This document shows, piece by piece, positions 12,762 to 57,847 of a stretch of DNA of 64,000 nt. Origin of the DNA: a virus (Duplodnaviria > Caudoviricetes). The stretch lies in the IMG/VR virus record IMGVR_UViG_3300026549_002532, positions 12,676-76,675 of that record. One strand, given 5' to 3'. Position 1 is the stretch's first letter. Every line of letters begins with the position of its first letter. The position numbers and the translations under genes were made by a program. Below the pieces are notes generated by a model, which saw only the letters and a program-made list of their open reading frames with translations, ran no database searches and was not told where the DNA came from.

Positions 12762-12926
12762 AGTTGTTGCCTTTTGTTGGGACAAAATTACTTTGCCACC
12801 GTAGGTTGGCAAAAGACAACAATTCGGGTCATGTGTGTCCCTGGGTGCCTGGTGTCGGTCGCTCACGTTCCGCCATGAATGAGAAAAGCCGCATTGCTGC
12901 GGCTCTCTCGGAGTGGTGGGCGGTGC

Positions 12927-13160
12927 TTACCATTCCTCGCAAGGGGTGATAATGTCATTGCCGAAGGCTTGTTCTTCAATGTCGTAAAACTCATCGGAAA
13001 GGCTGGCAAGATACTTGAAATTCCAGCGATTTTTCTTCATCTTCAGCAGCACAGAAATCAGCTTTGAGGCATGCTTGATGTCAAGTGCGCTAATGTCCAC
13101 CTTGCAGTAATAGGGGTGCAGCTTCTTCAGCAGTTCGATTTGTTTTGTTGTTGCTTTCAT
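12927..13160 (-). CDS. Hypothetical protein (MKATTKQIELL...)
   Basis: Last gene of small operon; hairpin terminator ~12880-12910. Confidence 0.55.
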   Translation of the reverse strand: MKATTKQIELLKKLHPYYCKVDISALDIKHASKLISVLLKMKKNRWNFKYLASLSDEFYDIEEQAFGNDIITPCEEW

Positions 13161-13872: not shown

Positions 13873-14118
13873 TTATTGCTCGCAATAGACATTGCAGTAA
13901 CTAACTTGTGTACCTTGCGACATAGCCATTTGTGCGGCTTGCTCGCTTGCCTCATCAGCCGTGCTTGCCTCGACTTGGAAAGTGTGTACCTCATTATCGA
14001 AGTCAACCACATCAACCGTGAAATTATTGAGTGCGGTAGAGCGGTAAGCTTTTTTACAAACTCTGCTCTCGGCTGCGGCAGAAGTGAAAAAGTACGATGT
14101 GTTGTAAGGAGCTGTCAT
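13873..14118 (-). CDS. Small hypothetical protein, first gene after hairpin promoter
   Basis: ORF track (shortened to MTAPY start). Confidence 0.5.
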   Translation of the reverse strand: MTAPYNTSYFFTSAAAESRVCKKAYRSTALNNFTVDVVDFDNEVHTFQVEASTADEASEQAAQMAMSQGTQVSYCNVYCEQ

Positions 14119-14127
14119 AACTGTATG

Positions 14128-14398
14128 AATTTTTAGGAGTGAATAAATCATTGATTACGTATATCGCGTATAAGCTTTTTACGGAACTTTATAAAGTGAG
14201 GCAGGAAAGTGACCGGCAGCAAGGCTTGCCCAAAAATTTTCTTCCCGTAGGGCTTGCCATTTTTCGGGCGCAACCCTAAAAATTGAAGAGAAATTTTGGA
14301 GCAACTTGTATAGCCTTGCAGAGAACGGCTGCCCTTAACTTTGTGACGGAAAAACTAATACAGGGCGATAGCAGTAATCAATTATTCACCTAAAAATC
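14128..14398 (-). promoter_or_regulatory. Candidate ssDNA (Frpo-like) hairpin promoter 1
   Basis: ~270 nt imperfect inverted repeat; TAACTTTG 14336-14343 and CTTG ~14315-14318 on right arm pair with non-consensus left arm. Confidence 0.6.
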
Positions 14399-14598
14399 GT
14401 TATGGCGGCTCCCCACATCGTGCCACTTCTGTAGCACCCGAGAGCAGATAAAACAAAGCAAGGAGAAGAACGGTGCCAGCCGTTTCCTCTCCTTACCCTG
14501 AAAAAATAGAACTGCCACCGGCAGTTTCTATAAAACAAAAAGGGTGAGCCATTGCTGACCCACCCACGGCTACGAAAGCCAAAGTTAAAATTTAGCGG

Positions 14599-39989: not shown

Positions 39990-41627
39990 CTACAGTACGC
40001 CACTACTGCTGATGCTGAAAGCATTGCGGTAAGGGAACTTCTCGCAGCCGATGTAGAGGGTGTCGAAAGCGTCGGTGCCATCGGTGCGGTGTTCGAGCAG
40101 GTTCTCCTCGTTTTCCGCGAGTTTTTCGCCGCCTTTGTCCTTTCGGAAGCCGTTGCGCCCACGAACTACTCCTGCCGTTTGAATGGCAAGGATCAGGTCG
40201 TCGTTGTTTTGGCGGTTGAACATCGGCATGAGCCGTTGTTTACCGGCAAAACCCTGGTTGATGAGCAGGTACTTCTCATCGTGGCGCATGGGATTTCCGA
40301 GGTTGATGTCCTCCACCTGCCAGCCGTGCCGCTCGAACTCGTGGCACACCACCCAGTGGAAGTCCTGCTCGTTGACGGCATAGTTGCCGCCGAGCGCGGT
40401 ACTGTCGTAGTAATAGACCACGACCTTGCATTGGTGGTGGGCGTAGTAGCGGCAAAAGTCGTCAATGAGCGCAGGTATCTTGCGCTCGAACTTCGTGTAG
40501 AACGACTTGATGACGTTGAGCCGTCGGCCTGTTGGCTGCCCGGCCACAATCCAATTGATGTTGGCATTGTAGTCCATGCCGATGCAAATGGGCGCAAACG
40601 GGTTCAAGTCCTTGTCGGCTCGGCAGTCGAGTTGGGCCTCGTTGAAGTCGTAGCCCAGACTGTCAAGGTATTCAAAATCGCTGGCGTTGTACTTGTGGCC
40701 CTCACGCATCGACGAATAGAAGCCGTCTTTGGCGATGCCTATTCGTTGACAAAGTATTGACGTTTGGAAAGTCTTTGGCGTGAGGTCGCGCTTCATCTGT
40801 TTGATGTAACTTTCGCCCAGTAGTTGTAGATTTTCAATGCTGCTGTATTCTTTGTAATACACCGCCACGGAGCGCATTTTGTTCAAGTCCTTATCGAGCC
40901 GTCGCAGATAAGTTCTAAGGTGCTTCGGCACGGTCGCGCCCTGCGCATTATAAGCACGGATGCGCTCTTTGACTTTCCAAATCTCATAGATAGTGGCCTT
41001 TATCGTCTCGATTAAGTCCACGTCCATCTTATCTTGATAGTGGAGAAACCACGAGCCTTTTTGCGTCTGCGGCATATCGCTCAAAATCATGACAGAATGA
41101 TTAAACGAGTGATGCCCGAAGTAAGACTTGATGCCGCCGTTCGCCGGTAGCGTCTCATCTTTAAGCCGTTCATAATCTATGAACTTGGCCTCGTCAATGA
41201 GCAGCCATGAGAGCGTGAGCGAGTTGGAGCTGCCCGGTCGGTCTTGCGAAATGATAATGGCGCAAGAGCCGTTGTAGAACGTGATGACGTGCTCATATTC
41301 GGCAGGCTCGATGATGGGCTTGCCGAAAGACTTGGGCGGTCGCCGTCCAATCACATAGTGAACACCTCTGATATAGCCCCATCGTTTCCACGCGGCGAGC
41401 AAGCCCGGGATGGTGTTCGTCAGTCCGTGCTTGTAGGTCGGCACCACGATGCCGCCTGTTGAGCCGGCCATGCGTTGCATATTACGCAACACAAAAGGCG
41501 AGGCGATAGAGTCGGTCTTGCCTGTGCGTCGCCCTGCGACAATGACCGTTGTATTGGCACCAATCAACTGCGTCAGTCGCTGCGGCGTATTAAAGTATAT
41601 TTGTTTCTTGGGATTTTCCATCTTCAA
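39990..41627 (-). CDS. Terminase large subunit
   Basis: AGRRTGKT Walker A, LLIDEAK Walker B, IGMDYN and TDGTDAFD nuclease motifs. Confidence 0.88.
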   Translation of the reverse strand: MKMENPKKQIYFNTPQRLTQLIGANTTVIVAGRRTGKTDSIASPFVLRNMQRMAGSTGGIVVPTYKHGLTNTIPGLLAAWKRWGYIRGVHYVIGRRPPKSFGKPIIEPAEYEHVITFYNGSCAIIISQDRPGSSNSLTLSWLLIDEAKFIDYERLKDETLPANGGIKSYFGHHSFNHSVMILSDMPQTQKGSWFLHYQDKMDVDLIETIKATIYEIWKVKERIRAYNAQGATVPKHLRTYLRRLDKDLNKMRSVAVYYKEYSSIENLQLLGESYIKQMKRDLTPKTFQTSILCQRIGIAKDGFYSSMREGHKYNASDFEYLDSLGYDFNEAQLDCRADKDLNPFAPICIGMDYNANINWIVAGQPTGRRLNVIKSFYTKFERKIPALIDDFCRYYAHHQCKVVVYYYDSTALGGNYAVNEQDFHWVVCHEFERHGWQVEDINLGNPMRHDEKYLLINQGFAGKQRLMPMFNRQNNDDLILAIQTAGVVRGRNGFRKDKGGEKLAENEENLLEHRTDGTDAFDTLYIGCEKFPYRNAFSISSSGVL

Positions 41628-46388: not shown

Positions 46389-47474
46389 TTAGGGAACTTG
46401 GTTGAACAGCTTCTTGGCGTTGTTCACCTTGTCGGCGAACACGTCAAAGGGAGACTTGGCGGTCTGTTGCGGAGCATCGACCACCACTTGTGACTTTTCG
46501 GCAGGGTTGGCTTTCAATGCCTGAACCTGCTCGGCGAGTTCGGTGTTGCGCTTGTCGCGGTCAGCGATGGCACGCTCAACGGCGAGCGCTTGCTCTGCGG
46601 TGAGCTTCACACCGTCCTCGCCCACAGCGAAGCCCTCGATGTTGAGGACTTCGCCAAGGAGCGAAAGGGACTGGAGCATGGTTGCGGATGGTTTGAGTGT
46701 TGGGGAAGATGGATGATTATTTTCGTTATGACTAGCTTTTTCTTTCATTTCAGCTTGGGGATTTCCGGCGGATATTTGTTCGTGTTCGGCCTCCTTGGCG
46801 GACTTGAACAGCGAGGCAATGGCAGCGATGAAACGCTCGATGAGCGTCTCATTGCGGCTGTAGGCTGTGGGTATGTTCGGAATGGGCATACCGGCAGCCG
46901 CCATCGCCGAAGCCACCGCGTCGGTGAGCACCGGCTTGGTCTCGCCCAGGTCGGTGATCTCATCGACAAAGCCCCAGGCCTTCGCCTCTTTAGCGGTGAG
47001 CCAGCCGCCTACTCGCATGAGGTCGAGCAGGTCGGCCTCGGGCTTGCTGCACTTGGCCGAATACATCGCGGCAACATTGTTGTCGAGTTTGTTGAGGTCT
47101 CGGATTGCCGCCTCGCAGTTGTCGCGGACAGTTGCGAGCTGGTCGGCATTCAGGCTTCCCCACTCGAAAAACTCCGCGCTGCACTTGTGCACGAGGTACA
47201 TGGCCGATGCGTCGATGCTGATGTGCCTGGCACCGAGCGAAGCGATGGTCGCGGCACTGGCATTCATGCCCACGAAGTGGACGGTGACATCGCCATGACG
47301 TTTGAACGCCGAGGCGATGGAGATGGCGGTCGCCAGCGAACCGCCGAGGCTGTCGATAAGCACGTGGACCGGCTTGCCCTCGTTCTTGGCAAGCACATAG
47401 TCCACATAGTCGCGGTCGAAGTCGTAGCCTCCGACGTAGCCTTTGAGGTGGAGATTGTATTTAGTCTGTGGCAT
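46389..47474 (-). CDS. ClpP-like prohead protease/scaffold (likely start MPQTK)
   Basis: IDSLGGS, VGMNASAATI, YLVHK, GGWLTAKEAKAWGFVDEI. Confidence 0.85.
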   Translation of the reverse strand: MPQTKYNLHLKGYVGGYDFDRDYVDYVLAKNEGKPVHVLIDSLGGSLATAISIASAFKRHGDVTVHFVGMNASAATIASLGARHISIDASAMYLVHKCSAEFFEWGSLNADQLATVRDNCEAAIRDLNKLDNNVAAMYSAKCSKPEADLLDLMRVGGWLTAKEAKAWGFVDEITDLGETKPVLTDAVASAMAAAGMPIPNIPTAYSRNETLIERFIAAIASLFKSAKEAEHEQISAGNPQAEMKEKASHNENNHPSSPTLKPSATMLQSLSLLGEVLNIEGFAVGEDGVKLTAEQALAVERAIADRDKRNTELAEQVQALKANPAEKSQVVVDAPQQTAKSPFDVFADKVNNAKKLFNQVP

Positions 47475-47582
47475 AATCGTACTGATTTTTGCCACAAAAT
47501 TATAAAGGTGCAAGTGCCGCATAAAAGACAGGAAAATATACCCTCTGTTTCAGATATTATTTTTACCTTTGCAGTCTAATAG

Positions 47583-49128: not shown

Positions 49129-49791
49129 CTAATCGCGGAAGACATAGCCATTCCAGAAAGTGAAGCCATCCAAGAAAATATCTCTTGCGAAAGCCTTGAT
49201 GTCAAAGTAATTACGCAGGTACGAGGGCATCTCAGCGTAATAGCCGCAATCCTCGGCAAGCTGCTCGGCGTAATCTTCTTCGCTGTCGAACTTTCCGCAA
49301 TAGGCCTCACGGAACTCATAAAAGAGATTGTCGCCGTCAGTGTAACTGCCGTACTTGCAATCAAGGAAAGCCTCGAAAGCCTCCTGCTCATCCTCATCAA
49401 GCCCGGCGAACTCGCGTACATTGTCGAAATCCTGTTCTGTGAAAGAGCCCTCGCGGTAGAACTGACCCGGGAATCCCATGTAATCTTGGAACATGTACTC
49501 CGGATCCTGCTCAAAGCGGTGAATCCAGCGGCAGACCATCATGAACTCCTCGTAATCGGCGCAAGCCTCGATGGAGACCCATGCTCCGCGCAGCGACCCC
49601 GAGGCGTATGCCCCGTATGACCCCACGTAGATAGCCGCTACTTCCTCATCGGGGTGAGCGATGAACTGCTCCAAATCCACTTCCTCAACCCCGTAGGGAT
49701 TGTTGATGTTCTCGACAGCCTTTACAGGCTCTTGTGCCTGGGTGCTTTGAGCACCGCTCGCAACTTCTGAAAATTTGTGATTTTTCTCCAT
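49129..49791 (-). CDS. ardA: Antirestriction protein ArdA (likely start MEKNH)
   Basis: IYVGSYGAYASGSLRGAW, PEYMFQDY, YCGKFDSEEDYA, YFDIKAFARD; highly acidic. Confidence 0.9.
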   Translation of the reverse strand: MEKNHKFSEVASGAQSTQAQEPVKAVENINNPYGVEEVDLEQFIAHPDEEVAAIYVGSYGAYASGSLRGAWVSIEACADYEEFMMVCRWIHRFEQDPEYMFQDYMGFPGQFYREGSFTEQDFDNVREFAGLDEDEQEAFEAFLDCKYGSYTDGDNLFYEFREAYCGKFDSEEDYAEQLAEDCGYYAEMPSYLRNYFDIKAFARDIFLDGFTFWNGYVFRD

Positions 49792-49838
49792 GACAGTGAA
49801 AAATTTATTGTGAAACAATCGAGTGAACTTGTAATCGC

Positions 49839-50039
49839 TCTTATTTGAGCTTTTACACTGCCTGCAAAGTGCGACGGCGAACACTTAGCAAGGATTGACC
49901 GAAAAAAATTACCCCTCGCGGGCCCGAAAAATTTTAGCCGGCACGGTCTCAAATTTTTTCATTTTTTTCGACCGTCAACATCGCCTGTCCTTGCGTGTTA
50001 AGACGGTGCATTAACTTTGCAGCGTAAAAGCCAAAAAGA
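49839..50039 (-). promoter_or_regulatory. Candidate ssDNA (Frpo-like) hairpin promoter 2
   Basis: Stems ctgcaaagt/actttgcag, gcaagga/tccttgc, cgaaaaaaat/atttttttcg; TAACTTTG 50012-50019 only on right arm. Confidence 0.65.
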
Positions 50040-50775
50040 GCCGATGCCCACAAGGAGCGAGTGTGCAGCGATAGATTTTGTCATGGAGAGCGCAGCAATC
50101 ACATCAAGAAGTGAGCGATTGCGTCCAACAAAGCACCGGCCATGAGGCGTAAAGCCGAGAACACAATCCCGAAGGAGAACAATGAAGGTGTGGATTGGGG
50201 CAGTCGCCCACCCGAGGAAGTGCCGCTGCGTGGGGGCGTTCGCTGCACGCACCCAGTGCGCCACGGAGCACTCCATTGAGCGCAGTCGCCGATTAGTTCA
50301 GAAAGTCTGCCGTTCACCGCATTGAGCAGAGGAGTACACCAAGATACAAGGGCAACCGAGTCAGTAAGCGAGGGTTCAAGGAGCAGGATTCAATGCACGC
50401 CGCCGAGCCGATTAGAACCAAGATGGGCAGGAAGCCGAGGCTTTTCCGCAATACGGCAGACTGACAGCGACAATCAATGAGAGCCGTGATATTGCGTAAA
50501 GTAGGCGAAGAATAGCCGAGCGGTGATGATTGTGTGCGTCCATTACGCTTTGCCCGACACCATTCCATAGTTACACAACGACATCAAGGCAATCAGCAAG
50601 AGACTTGGACGGCTCCACGGAATGGCTGCTCCGCCACCAGTCACGTGCCACATCGGGTGAGGATGAATCACTTATTGCCCACCGATGATGATAAAAAGGC
50701 GACGGCAAGCGTTTCCCAACGACTGCCGCCTAAAGTAAAAAGGTATTTCTTTGTATGAAAAAAATCTACATAGTT

Positions 50776-54622: not shown

Positions 54623-54671
54623 CGGGATTGGAAAAGTTGAGCGAATTGCGGAGTAGGTCGGAATGAATTTT

Positions 54672-55490
54672 ATGGCAAAAGCAAAATTCTTTCTCGACAC
54701 ACGGCGAAGCAAGCCGGGGTCGCCATCGGTCTTGAAGGTGGCAATCGGTCACCGCGACAAGACTTCGTACATTTCACTGACTGCACGGCTGCTCCCCGAG
54801 CAGTGGGATGCAGAGCACTCACTGGTGATCAACCACCCGGAGCAGCAGTTGCTGAACATCTATATTATGGGTGTAAAGCAGCAAGTTGACCGAACCATCT
54901 TTATCCTTGCCGACAATGGCAGTCTTCAATCTATGACTGCCAATGACATCAAGCTGGAGATTGAGCGCAAACTCAATCCCGAAAAAGTCGAGGAAATGGA
55001 GCAAAAGCAACGTAGCAAGAACCTGTTCGCTGCACGTTACTTGAAGTTCACGGAGAGCAAGATAGGCAGCACTCACCGCATTTATATGGAAACATACAAG
55101 CGTATGTTAGAGTTCGCCGGTGAGAAGCTGAATAGCCTTGCTTTTGAGGACATTACAAAGGAATGGATTATCAGTTTTTATAACTACATGGCTCCACAGT
55201 CACCGTCACGCAATGCCCGCAACATCCACCTGCGGAACATTCGCGCCGTGTTTAACGAAGCGATTGACGATGAGGTGACTACGTTCTATCCTTTCCGCCG
55301 TTTCCAGATTAAGAATGAGGCTACCCGCAAGCGTAACCTCAAAGTTGAGGACTTCCGCAAGTTCATCAACTTTCCCTGCGAGGAGCACGCTCAAAAGTAC
55401 CTTGACATGTTCAAGCTGATGTTCATGCTTCTGGGCATTAACATCGTTGACTTGTGCAACCTCAAAGAAATTGATAGTGAGGGGCGTATC
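54672..55490 (+). pseudogene. Truncated tyrosine integrase
   Basis: Arm-binding and SAM-like domains, RNIRAVFNEA, GINIVDL; breaks after GRI, losing HxxR and catalytic Tyr. Confidence 0.85.
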
Positions 55491-55530
55491 AATAAAGGCA
55501 AGGAGCACAAGAAATACGAGTTCGGACGAC
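55488..55530 (+). mobile_element. Short IS5-family transposase scrap
   Basis: NKGKEHKKYEFG motif fused in frame to integrase. Confidence 0.55.
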
Positions 55531-55639
55531 AAACCAGCCGCAGGTCTGCCTATGCGCCCTTTTGTTGCACTTTGGGTCGGGCGGGGGAAAGAAAAGGCTC
55601 ACCGATTGGCGAGCCTTTAAGGATGCGGTGTGTGAAATG

Positions 55640-57847
55640 TTATTTCACAACGAACTTTTTGCCGTCTTGGATGACGATGCCCTTGTAGTCATCGCCAACG
55701 GGCTGACCCATGAGGTTGTAGCGCTGGCCGCTGCGGGGCTGCGCTGCGTTGAGGTCTTGGACACCAGTAACGGTGGCCTCCTTGAACGTGGCGTTCACGT
55801 AAACGGGAGCAGCCGGCATCTCGAAGGTGAAGGTGTTCAGATCGGTGCCAGGGATAATGTCCACTGAGCCGCCACGCAGACGTATCAGTGCGCCGCTTGG
55901 CTCGGCCTCGGGGCTGAAAGTCACGGTGAGCGTTTCAATCTCATAGCCGTTGTCGGGGGTGACGGTCAGCGTCACGGTCTCGCCGATGGAGGCGGCCTCC
56001 TTGTTGCTGGTCACGGTGCCGTGCTCAAACGATTCGGGCACATTGATGGCTAACAGCGGCGACACCACGGTCAGGTGAATGAGGGATGCATTAAAATTAC
56101 TAACAAAGGTAACAACGCTGTAGGTGACTCCAGCCTCAAGCGTGGCTGTGAATTCCAAGTCTTCACCTTGCGATTCTTCATGATTAAGAATATCCTCTCC
56201 AAGCAACACCCCAACTCCAGGCAAGAGCGAAGCGTCGCCAGTGGTGCGGAAAGTGTACTCACCGCTCACCGGAGGGGTGAAGGGATACATAAAGTCTACG
56301 CCACACGGAGCGTAAATCTCATTCTCGCCTACCGTGATAGGAGCGATGTCGTACTTGGCCACGTTCAGGATGCCGCTGCTGTCGCCCTGTGGAAGCATAG
56401 TTACAACCGAATAGGTTACACCCGCCTCAAGCATGGCGGCCGCACAGGGTGTTTGCTCCGGTTCTTGGGGCATGCCCATCGATATCTTCTCTCCTTCTTC
56501 ATCCAATGCAACAAGGAACATAGCCTCATCGTCACCATTCAACGTGAAGATGTAGGCACCGCTCTCGGTGGGCGTAAAGAAATAGACTGTGGGTTCGTTG
56601 ACCAAAGCCACCTCGTTGTCGCCCATTTGGAGCACGTTGTCATCGCCAACCGGCGACCCTCCATCCTCCGACACGTTCAGGTGGATGAAAGCGCCATGGC
56701 TGGTACCTACACGCACTCTAAAGGCGTAGGCGACTCCTGCCTGAAGCGTGACGGTTATATTTATGTCTGTTTGATTAGGTACACAGTAATCTATCACGTC
56801 ATCTCCAAGCATCACCGCCGCTGCGGGATTCAATGCAGCAAAGCCAGAGGTGCTGAAGGTGTACTCACCGCTCTCTTCGGGAATAAAGGGATAGTAGAAT
56901 TCATTACCATTCGGAGCGTAAATCTCATTATCACCCACCGTGATGGGAGCGAGTTCATACTTGGAGATGTTCAGGATGGGAGCAACGTCGTTGCTTCCAT
57001 AGACATTAGCAATAGCCATAACCCCATAGGTGACATTCGCGTCGAGCATAACGCCCGATGAGAGCGTTTCTAACGGTGGTGCATAGCCCATTGCAATCAT
57101 ATCGTTTCCCGAAGATATCTGTACCACCGCATCCACGTCACAATCCATCGTGAAGATGTAGGCTCCGCTCTCGGTGGGCGTAAAGGCATAACTAATCATG
57201 TCGACAACATTCACCTCGTTGTCGCCCAGTTGCAGGGTTGGCATCTCGCCCGACCCGCTGATGGTGACATCGGCGGCCGGCATGGTGAAGGAGTAAACGC
57301 TGCCTGACTCTGTGATTTCGACAGGCTCGCCATTGGCGGTCGCGGTGAGGCTGTTGATGGTCACGCCCGCGTTAGCCGTCAGTTTCACATTCTCCCCCTC
57401 GAAAGCCACGTATGGCAGTGGTCTCAACATATTCAGGAGGCCGGCGCTCGCGGCGTCGGTGCTGACGAGATAACCCTTGCTCACGACGACATTCGCATCG
57501 CCGGATTCACCTTCAAGATACGCACGTAAACGCAATTTGTACGTTAGCCCGGCCTCCAGCTTCTGTGTCCAAGCAAGGTGGCCGACATAAGTGTTCGTCG
57601 CCTCGTCTAGTTCGGATAGGGCATCAGCATAGTCTGGGCTATCCATGTTGATTGCAAAATCTAGTTTCACATCCGACGTACCGACGAACACATAGTAGTC
57701 GGTCTCCTCGGGAGTAAACGACAGATAGACGCCATCGTTAGTGATGGTGAACGGGCCGTTGTCGCCCACCTGGAGCGGCGTGAAGTCCTGTGCCCACACC
57801 GTGGCGGTGGTGAGCAGTGCGAAAAGAAATAGTAATACTTTTTTCAT
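55640..57847 (-). CDS. Secreted repeat surface protein
   Basis: Signal peptide; repeated GDNE..FTPxESGxYxFT modules; InlB-B-repeat-like domain; YNLMGQPV..KGIVIQDGKK tail. Confidence 0.8.
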   Translation of the reverse strand: MKKVLLFLFALLTTATVWAQDFTPLQVGDNGPFTITNDGVYLSFTPEETDYYVFVGTSDVKLDFAINMDSPDYADALSELDEATNTYVGHLAWTQKLEAGLTYKLRLRAYLEGESGDANVVVSKGYLVSTDAASAGLLNMLRPLPYVAFEGENVKLTANAGVTINSLTATANGEPVEITESGSVYSFTMPAADVTISGSGEMPTLQLGDNEVNVVDMISYAFTPTESGAYIFTMDCDVDAVVQISSGNDMIAMGYAPPLETLSSGVMLDANVTYGVMAIANVYGSNDVAPILNISKYELAPITVGDNEIYAPNGNEFYYPFIPEESGEYTFSTSGFAALNPAAAVMLGDDVIDYCVPNQTDINITVTLQAGVAYAFRVRVGTSHGAFIHLNVSEDGGSPVGDDNVLQMGDNEVALVNEPTVYFFTPTESGAYIFTLNGDDEAMFLVALDEEGEKISMGMPQEPEQTPCAAAMLEAGVTYSVVTMLPQGDSSGILNVAKYDIAPITVGENEIYAPCGVDFMYPFTPPVSGEYTFRTTGDASLLPGVGVLLGEDILNHEESQGEDLEFTATLEAGVTYSVVTFVSNFNASLIHLTVVSPLLAINVPESFEHGTVTSNKEAASIGETVTLTVTPDNGYEIETLTVTFSPEAEPSGALIRLRGGSVDIIPGTDLNTFTFEMPAAPVYVNATFKEATVTGVQDLNAAQPRSGQRYNLMGQPVGDDYKGIVIQDGKKFVVK

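Follow-up and report, generated by a model that had tools for sequence, protein, structure and literature searches.

In this work, we found a long imperfect hairpin at the head of a small operon in a tailed prophage of Bacteroidales, and this hairpin probably acts as a strand-state-dependent promoter of the Frpo/ssi type that is built from Bacteroidota sigma-A (-33/-7) elements. The DNA analyzed (hereafter, the window) is a stretch of 64,000 nucleotides that corresponds to positions 12,676-76,675 of the 76.7-kb IMG/VR provirus record IMGVR_UViG_3300026549_002532, for which CheckV gives a completeness of 100%. Coordinates refer to the window unless a locus handle is attached, and the main features are collected in Table 1.

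Genomic setting

Nearly all genes of the provirus record are on the minus strand. The terminase, portal, head protease, holin, amidase, integrase, and tRNA, together with the finding of no relaxase in the record, establish that the element is a tailed prophage of Bacteroidales and rule out a conjugative element. Consistent with this, the hairpin and its operon (hereafter, the cassette) sit in a prophage backbone in the order of terL, cassette, and portal, rather than in the leading region or on the transferred strand of a conjugative element. A search against Rfam returned no family over the window and a single tRNA in the rest of the record, and the phage GenBank collection gave no DNA match. 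The tRNA gene (L004 645-719) and the integrase are at opposite ends of the record, and the tRNA gene is likely the attachment site, in which case the prophage would measure ~67.6 kb.

Table 1. Features of the hairpin, the operon, and the surrounding prophage (window coordinates).
Feature	Position	Strand	Remarks
Full imperfect hairpin	14048-14461	+ (template)	Fold, inverted-repeat arms, and conservation in 74 loci with covariation
Proximal arm of hairpin	~14048-14250
Distal arm of hairpin	~14262-14461
A/T-rich apex of hairpin	near 14245-14275
TAACTTTG, perfect Bacteroidota sigma-A -7 box	14336-14343	+	Distal arm; predicted non-template strand for leftward transcription when folded
CCTTGC, candidate -33 element (TTG)	14314-14319	+	Precedes the -7 box by 17 nt; pairs in the invariant stem gcaaggct/agccttgc
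Proximal-arm counterpart of the -7 box	14192-14199	-	+ strand TAAAGTGA, coding strand TCACTTTA; off consensus at positions 2 and 8
Near-invariant block TCGCGTATAAGCTTTTTACGG	14164-14184	+	Proximal arm; invariant columns in the alignment
First gene, 81 aa (P0002)	13873-14118	-	Heads the cassette in all related loci; homolog also precedes ArdC in L064
Second gene, 201 aa	13218-13823	-	Pfam MutS_I, 4.5e-22
Third gene, 77 aa (P0003)	12927-13160	-	Variable slot
Three tandem intrinsic terminators	14565-14542, 14526-14510, 14494-14460	-	Immediately follow the stop codon of the 14599-15024 gene
Terminator-like hairpin ending the operon	12791-12814	-	Abuts the next promoter
Next promoter, TAATTTTG	12783-12790	-	Adjoins the terminator-like hairpin of the operon
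Paralogous candidate hairpin promoter before ardA	49833-50050	+	Fold z = -7.45
ArdA	49129-49884	-	Pfam, 7e-31
Large terminase	39990-41627
Head protease	46389-47522
Tyrosine integrase	54663-55688
Amidase and holin genes			Prophage lysis genes
Portal-like protein gene			Present in the prophage
DnaD/O-like and DnaC-like replication proteins			Present in the prophage

Structure of the hairpin

The sequence-only reading had placed a hairpin of ~270 nt at 14128-14398. This hairpin is real, as a 286-nt core folds at -51.7 kcal/mol (z = -6.4), a value that none of the 200 shuffles equaled, while its true extent is 14048-14461. Two pairs of outer arms (14062-14086/14424-14448 and 14103-14121/14399-14417) extend the palindrome to these limits, and a 421-nt fold reaches -93.1 kcal/mol (z = -10.85). 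The genes being on the minus strand, the structure is a long imperfect stem-loop on their template strand (fold z = -6.4 to -11.5), with mismatches at about 16% of the stem positions (one in six).

Two of the three stems that had been named exist and could be located and paired: gcaaggct (14219-14226) pairs with agccttgc (14312-14319), and the attgattac/gtaatcaat pairing is contained in arms of 22 nt (14146-14167/14365-14386). For the third, gaggcag/ctgccct, the pairing is partial (GGCAG with CTGCC). On the gene side, the stem takes in the start codon (14118-14116) and ~23 codons (~70 nt) of the first gene. Only two hairpins of such kind, namely, this one and another before ardA, were found when the entire 76.7-kb record was folded in sliding segments.

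Promoter elements on the two arms

The sigma-A consensus of Bacteroidota consists of TAnnTTTG at -7 and TTTG near -33 (PMC7366714). The promoter elements within the stem are of this sigma-A(Bfr) type rather than sigma-70, with the consensus on the non-template arm. As had been claimed before, the box is found on the distal arm only, and the same holds in relatives. In duplex DNA, the distal-arm TAACTTTG is directed away from the operon; the operon-facing copy is, judging by its two departures from consensus, a defective double-strand promoter. CCTTGC is tentatively assigned as the -33 element, since its distance to the -7 box in the hairpin promoters (17-18 nt) is 1-2 nt shorter than that at another promoter of the same phage (19 nt; 12783-12790). 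From the position of the box, transcription is predicted to start opposite 14347-14350, with the template at ~14180-14184; in the pairing map, 14350-14354 pair with 14176-14180. The leader from this predicted start would be an A/U-rich 5′ UTR of about 62-66 nt.

The 480-nt intergenic space contains two matches to the -7 box, and the one outside the hairpin is a minus-strand copy of TAACTTTG at 14587-14580, between the stop codon of the 14599-15024 gene and the first terminator. Together with the preceding T (TTAACTTTG, 14580-14588), it repeats 9 nt of the distal-arm box. Transcription from this site would run into a terminator after about 10-30 nt, and the copy could be a chance occurrence or serve a tiny RNA. 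No coding-strand box was found at this position in the related loci scanned, with the near-identical L021 left out.

Conservation and covariation in related loci

Homologs of the 81-aa protein led to 11 viral loci, 27 loci from metagenome-assembled genomes (MAGs), and 52 loci from metagenomes, which come from rumen and gut Muribaculaceae and Prevotellaceae. The 74 loci with enough upstream sequence represent 66 distinct hairpin sequences, and all of them have a common fold. On the distal template-strand arm, TAnnTTTG is perfect and in the same place in 71 of these 74 loci, and the arrangement GCCTTGCAG-N16/17-TAnCTTTGC is conserved, with CCTTGC at 16-18 nt ahead of the box. The three exceptions each have a local change: in L202, an insertion of ~85 nt between the -33 and -7 elements displaced the box (another insertion is in the loop); in L032, the distal -7 box was lost by a deletion that also removed the start region; and in L189, the box was disrupted as another gene with its own promoter replaces the distal half. 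No TAnnTTTG was found on the coding strand inside the hairpin in any of the 74 loci, and the proximal counterpart is always defective, with lineage-specific forms (TCACTTTG, TAACTTGA, TAACTCTT, TTACTTGT, CAACTTGA, and others). Judging from these sequences, selection keeps the box on one arm only.

Lack of conservation had been named in advance as a finding that would count against the hairpin; instead, the structure is conserved, with compensatory changes in relatives, and is under selection. In an alignment of 11 diverse relatives, 92.9% of the cells are paired, compared with 37-53% when the partners are slid, and double changes are found in 26 of the 69 pairs, compared with 4-9 when slid. 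None of the 500 shuffles reached the observed values for pairing or double changes. The covariation includes helices that join the coding 5′ end of the first gene to the far arm, and the far arm has frame-breaking indels and is therefore not coding. On the template strand, G.T and A.C oppositions occur at 99:59 among 15 cluster representatives, where 1.05:1 is expected from base composition. This bias is reversed in four of the 15 representatives, and the overall excess provides moderate support for the + strand as the strand that folds.

Insulation of the operon

The hairpins at 14455-14580 had been likened to ssi or priming signals. This likeness did not stand, as T-runs come after the hairpins when these are read on the minus strand, and they score as intrinsic terminators. 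Two of the stems, which are followed by TTTTTGTTTT and CTATTTTTTC, were called by the terminator scan, and the third stem (arms 14460-14470/14484-14494) is followed by GCTTTGTTTTAT; all three sites lie behind a gene and consist of a G+C-rich stem with a T-run after it on the strand that is transcribed. A hairpin at the terminator position is also present in relatives, with stem sequences that differ between lineages. By their position and strand, these terminators end the 14599-15024 gene and shield the cassette from read-through. With the stack identified as terminators, no double-strand promoter is left for the operon, which is closed off at either end.

Genes of the operon

The operon had been described as three small genes that include a stand-alone MutS domain I. 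The first two genes are conserved in relatives, whereas the slot of the third is variable. For the 81-aa protein, the structure model has low confidence at residues 1-28 (pLDDT < 50), and residues 31-79 (pLDDT about 85) are predicted to form a small beta-beta-alpha-beta domain behind an N-terminal tail encoded by the stem. The best hits of a fold search were ribosomal and PurS-like beta-beta-alpha-beta domains (best Z = 7.0), and the protein atlas contained viral hypothetical clusters only. The resemblances to T7 Gp2 (5.2) and AcrIE2 (4.4) lie in the noise range given by the tool, and no informative structural match was obtained for the domain.

The 201-aa protein consists of a conserved N-terminal domain (pLDDT 42-64 in the model), an Ala/Glu/Gln-rich linker, MutS domain I (residues 98-186), and a basic tail. 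The MutS domain I aligns with residues 17-103 of Taq MutS at 1.6e-14. In the mismatch-binding Phe-X-Glu motif, the stacking residue Phe is invariant among 11 homologs and the Glu position varies (G/E/V/T/M), with Gly in this protein. MutS domains II-V (connector, core, clamp, and ATPase) are absent from this product; given its length and MutS_I as its sole match, the product is a domain-I protein and not a MutS. Speculatively, it may bind to DNA that is mismatched or in hairpin form, or may compete with the MutS of the host.

The 77-aa gene had no tblastn match in any related locus. Elsewhere, the third slot holds unrelated small ORFs (L005, L007, L012, L020, and L024) and is empty in the simplest backbones; one third-slot ORF encodes a 45-aa Cys-rich peptide (CYYCKF...C.WH.W.C). 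Given that sister cassettes carry ArdA and ArdC, the genes of this operon may by analogy have early anti-defense or repair-modulating functions.

A family of cassettes in phages and other elements

The hairpin before ardA has the same layout and uses the same + template strand as that of the operon, which agrees with the sequence-only reading. That reading had also held that the two have little primary identity, but a shared sequence core was found: GAGCTTTT(T)AC, AGCAAGGnTTGnCC, CCTTGC-N17/18-TTAACTTTG, and CGnAAAA are common to both hairpins. The inner promoter core is thus common, whereas the outer stems differ, each being particular to the gene that it precedes. In the ardA hairpin, TAACTTTG is on the distal arm (50012-50019) and the coding-strand counterpart reads GCACTTTG.

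A pattern scan of viral contigs provided a list of sister cassettes that is a sample and a lower bound. Among the matches listed, the same layout was found before ArdA (L155), before an 81-aa-like gene and ArdC with a zincin domain (L064), and before other small genes. Sister cassettes would accordingly drive ArdA in the window and in L155, and ArdC in L064, by predicted hairpin promoters.

The simplest gene order is terL, terminator, hairpin, 81-aa gene, MutS-I gene, 413-aa gene, and portal (L013, L031, and L034), and L043 has this backbone order without a MutS-I match. The terL-to-portal order in these simplest relatives indicates that the cassette is part of the phage backbone. In the window, a cargo island of 27 kb lies between the cassette and terL, and ardA comes after the MutS-I gene in L035 and L044. 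The neighboring gene on the far-arm side varies, being terL in some loci and cargo genes in others. The cassette was also found outside recognizable phages in L026 and L033, the latter near an integrase. In L026 (1791-2714 and 8308-10716), the hairpin, 81-aa gene, and MutS-I gene lie between a DprA-family gene with an M13 peptidase and a UvrD helicase; this setting is chromosomal, with no phage genes nearby.

Among 201 sampled Bacteroidales genomes, ArdA was found in four. In two of these, a CTnDOT-type TraJ is encoded at a distance of 5.6-6.5 kb from ardA, and one of the two also has a relaxase 15 kb from ardA. These CTnDOT-like elements (L216 1050-1415; L218) have a hairpin of ~340 nt before ardA (z = -7.4), in which TACCTTTG is on the distal template-strand arm only and the coding strand is without a box. 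The same hairpin was found in L217, a genome in which TraJ and relaxase were not found. Judging by its design, this hairpin is a candidate single-strand promoter of Bacteroidales conjugative transposons; our literature search on Bacteroides conjugative transposons found no mention of such hairpins. The host order, the design, and the restriction of the box to the distal template-strand arm are the same as in the phage cassettes. The differences are in the sequence class, in the position (the CTnDOT-like hairpins end ~65 nt before the ATG, whereas the phage stem covers it), in the longer -33 to -7 spacing of 22-23 nt, and in the carriers, which transfer as single strands (TraJ and relaxase nearby). 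The presence of this device in elements of the same order that enter cells as single strands supports a like reading of the phage cassettes.

Proposed mechanism and alternative explanations

From the layout described above, we infer how the operon may be transcribed. When the + strand is unpaired from its complement, 14048-14461 would fold into a stem-loop of ~410 nt, in which the distal arm would serve as the consensus non-template strand (CCTTGC-N17-TAACTTTG) and the proximal arm, continuous with the genes, as the template. The host RNA polymerase would start opposite ~14180-14184 and read leftward through the 81-aa gene, the MutS-domain-I gene, and the variable third gene. In the duplex state, the box faces away, the operon-facing copy is defective, and the three terminators would stop upstream read-through. 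With these three features combined, the operon is expected to be silent in the resting prophage and to fire only when the + strand is exposed, as single-stranded or extruded DNA. At the RNA level, a read-through transcript would contain both arms and have its start codon buried in a long RNA hairpin, whereas a transcript that starts inside the hairpin would be without the partner arm and open for translation. The long outer stem would also stabilize the DNA hairpin.

Candidate stages at which a single + strand may be present include a lagging-strand or rolling-circle intermediate, the more obvious choice, and DNA entry. The + strand would be the lagging template when the fork travels across the map in the rightward direction. 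Tailed phages are thought to deliver duplex DNA, which counts against the hairpin-promoter reading; the short -33 spacing and the moderate size of the G.T bias are further points against it. Extrusion of a cruciform from duplex DNA would probably be costly, given the frequency of mismatches in the stem. As duplex, the perfect box should also fire rightward, which is a possible second role. A broader idea, which as a whole is possible and somewhat doubtful, is that tailed duplex-DNA prophages of rumen and gut Bacteroidales read their own strandedness. The cassettes before ardA, ardC, and the 81-aa/MutS-I genes would then fire only on the single + strand; the implied single-stranded stage (entry or replication intermediates) would time the anti-restriction and anti-repair genes; and MutS-I would either target mismatched DNA, of which these hairpins are an example, or block the mismatch repair of the host.

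We weighed other explanations of the same structure. The box and the TTG 17 nt upstream are consensus in the duplex too, and could form an ordinary promoter that fires rightward to produce a non-coding or antisense RNA, with the palindrome acting as an RNA-level insulator in which read-through transcripts have their start codon hidden. In favor of this, the start codon is indeed within the stem, and in the backbone relatives the rightward RNA would extend as an antisense transcript into terL at its 3′ end. However, what is conserved on the right side is only the far arm, with its frame-breaking indels and no Rfam match, and the opposite-facing terminators, whose stems are not followed by a T-run on the + strand. 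The neighboring gene on that side is inconstant (terL or cargo genes), the operon would be left without a promoter in 74 loci, and a rightward RNA has one arm only and cannot explain the covariation of the inner stem or the G.T bias of the + strand. We therefore regard this explanation as unlikely. Still less probable is an invertible promoter, in which recombination at the outer inverted repeats would swap the defective and consensus boxes and switch the operon on as duplex. Promoters flanked by inverted repeats are common in Bacteroidales (PMC8748976; PMC7641763), repeats of 19-25 nt are available at 14062-14121/14399-14448, and a flip would put TAACTTTG ~65 nt upstream of the ATG. Against these points, only one orientation was found, with the "on" orientation in none of the 72 scorable loci from MAGs, viromes, and metagenomes. 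Moreover, the entire interior is palindromic with covariation, for which an inverton has no need, and the mismatch types are strand-biased.

The hairpin might also be a single-strand initiation site, i.e., a complementary-strand origin of the filamentous-phage or rolling-circle-plasmid kind, at which RNA polymerase would synthesize a primer, with gene expression as a by-product. Promoter-like hairpins are known at the minus-strand origin of filamentous phages, and both copies in this phage are on the same strand. Frpo, according to Masai and Arai (1997; cited in PMC11541004 and PMC12672017), functions in transcription as well as in the synthesis of primers. However, the hairpin is tied to its gene, with a stem that includes the start codon and co-varies; the cassette travels with differing anti-restriction cargo; and it is insulated like a transcription unit. 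An initiation site is the least probable of these three alternatives, and a priming role would be compatible with the hairpin-promoter reading. Several further candidates were rejected. A functionless relic of an inverted duplication does not agree with the compensatory changes that keep the pairing across 11-74 loci. A pac or cos site, as suggested by the adjacency to terL, does not agree with the paralog before ardA, which is far from the packaging genes, or with the non-phage cassettes (L026 and L033). A foldback transposable element is at odds with only two copies in the record, each facing a gene and with an outer stem tailored to that gene, and a small peptide on the far arm was dismissed on account of the frame-breaking indels.

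Comparison with known systems and implications

The Frpo and class 1-3 single-stranded DNA promoters drive ardA, klcA, psiB, ssb, and methylase genes on F and pESBL, are reported to be inactive as duplex, and have been described in papers concerning enterobacterial plasmids (PMC11541004; PMC12672017). In the one of these papers that we searched for the terms, Bacteroidota are unmentioned and phages are mentioned in passing, never as carriers. Similar to Frpo1/Frpo2 (F), ssi1-3 (ColIb-P9), and class 1-3 (pESBL), the phage hairpin is a long imperfect stem-loop on the template strand at the head of its genes (PMC11541004; PMC12672017; PMC9849209); in the plasmids these are establishment or anti-restriction genes (ardA, klcA, ssb, psiB, and methylase), a role for which the 81-aa and MutS-I genes are candidates. 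Also in common, the promoter elements would be reconstituted in the stem, and several hairpins are on one strand of the element. It differs in having Bacteroidota TTG/TAnnTTTG elements instead of the -35/-10 elements of sigma-70, in being carried by a tailed prophage in which no relaxase was found instead of the leading region of a conjugative plasmid, and in having a stem that extends into coding sequence; its activity on single-stranded DNA is predicted. With promoters of such different types, the phage hairpin is unlikely to resemble Frpo or ssi1-3 in sequence.

Among phages, the early-gene hairpins of coliphage N4 have stems of 5-7 bp that are read by the virion RNA polymerase. The minus-strand origin of filamentous phages, which are ssDNA phages, mimics a host promoter on single-stranded DNA and yields a primer, not an mRNA. 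By analogy, the hairpin found here would likewise be a phage DNA hairpin that recruits RNA polymerase; unlike these examples, it has a 410-nt stem with host sigma-A elements and belongs to a duplex-DNA tailed phage. Its resemblance to the invertible promoters of Bacteroidales is that a host-type promoter lies between inverted repeats and points off the gene in the reference orientation, and it differs from them in having one orientation in 72 loci and a whole segment that is a co-varying palindrome.

Single-strand promoters have been regarded as a specialty of enterobacterial conjugative plasmids. The cassettes described here appear to follow the same logic with an unrelated Bacteroidota promoter grammar. 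The hairpin design is found in conjugative transposons and, unexpectedly, in a conserved tailed-prophage backbone, and it has been selected across dozens of lineages. If the proposed reading is true, the hairpin would be a ready marker for early or counter-defense genes in Bacteroidales mobile elements, with ArdA, ArdC, and two unknown proteins already tagged. In that case, Bacteroides genetics would also gain a natural switch that is off in the lysogen and on in the naked strand. The findings further point to the stand-alone MutS domain I as a candidate modulator of mismatch repair, and they raise the question of when a duplex-DNA phage exposes one strand.

Additional observations

To the left of the window (L004 11270-11600, record coordinates), a G+C-rich stretch of ~330 nt forms a long rod (-115 kcal/mol for 430 nt). 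As TAnnTTTG is absent from its + strand and Rfam gives no match, this rod is another kind of structure than the hairpin promoters. Within the window, the ~700 nt directly upstream of the ardA hairpin (50050-50775) have a higher G+C content and no convincing ORF, the sole frame being 92 aa. Many contigs from metagenomes and MAGs break off within the 81-aa gene or shortly behind it (L177, L181, L184-L187, L190-L193, L196, L198, L199, L207, L025, L032, L036, L037, L040, and L046), and others begin inside it (L023, L035, L174, L180, and L194). These ends look like assembly breaks at a segment that is common to co-occurring phages with different flanks.
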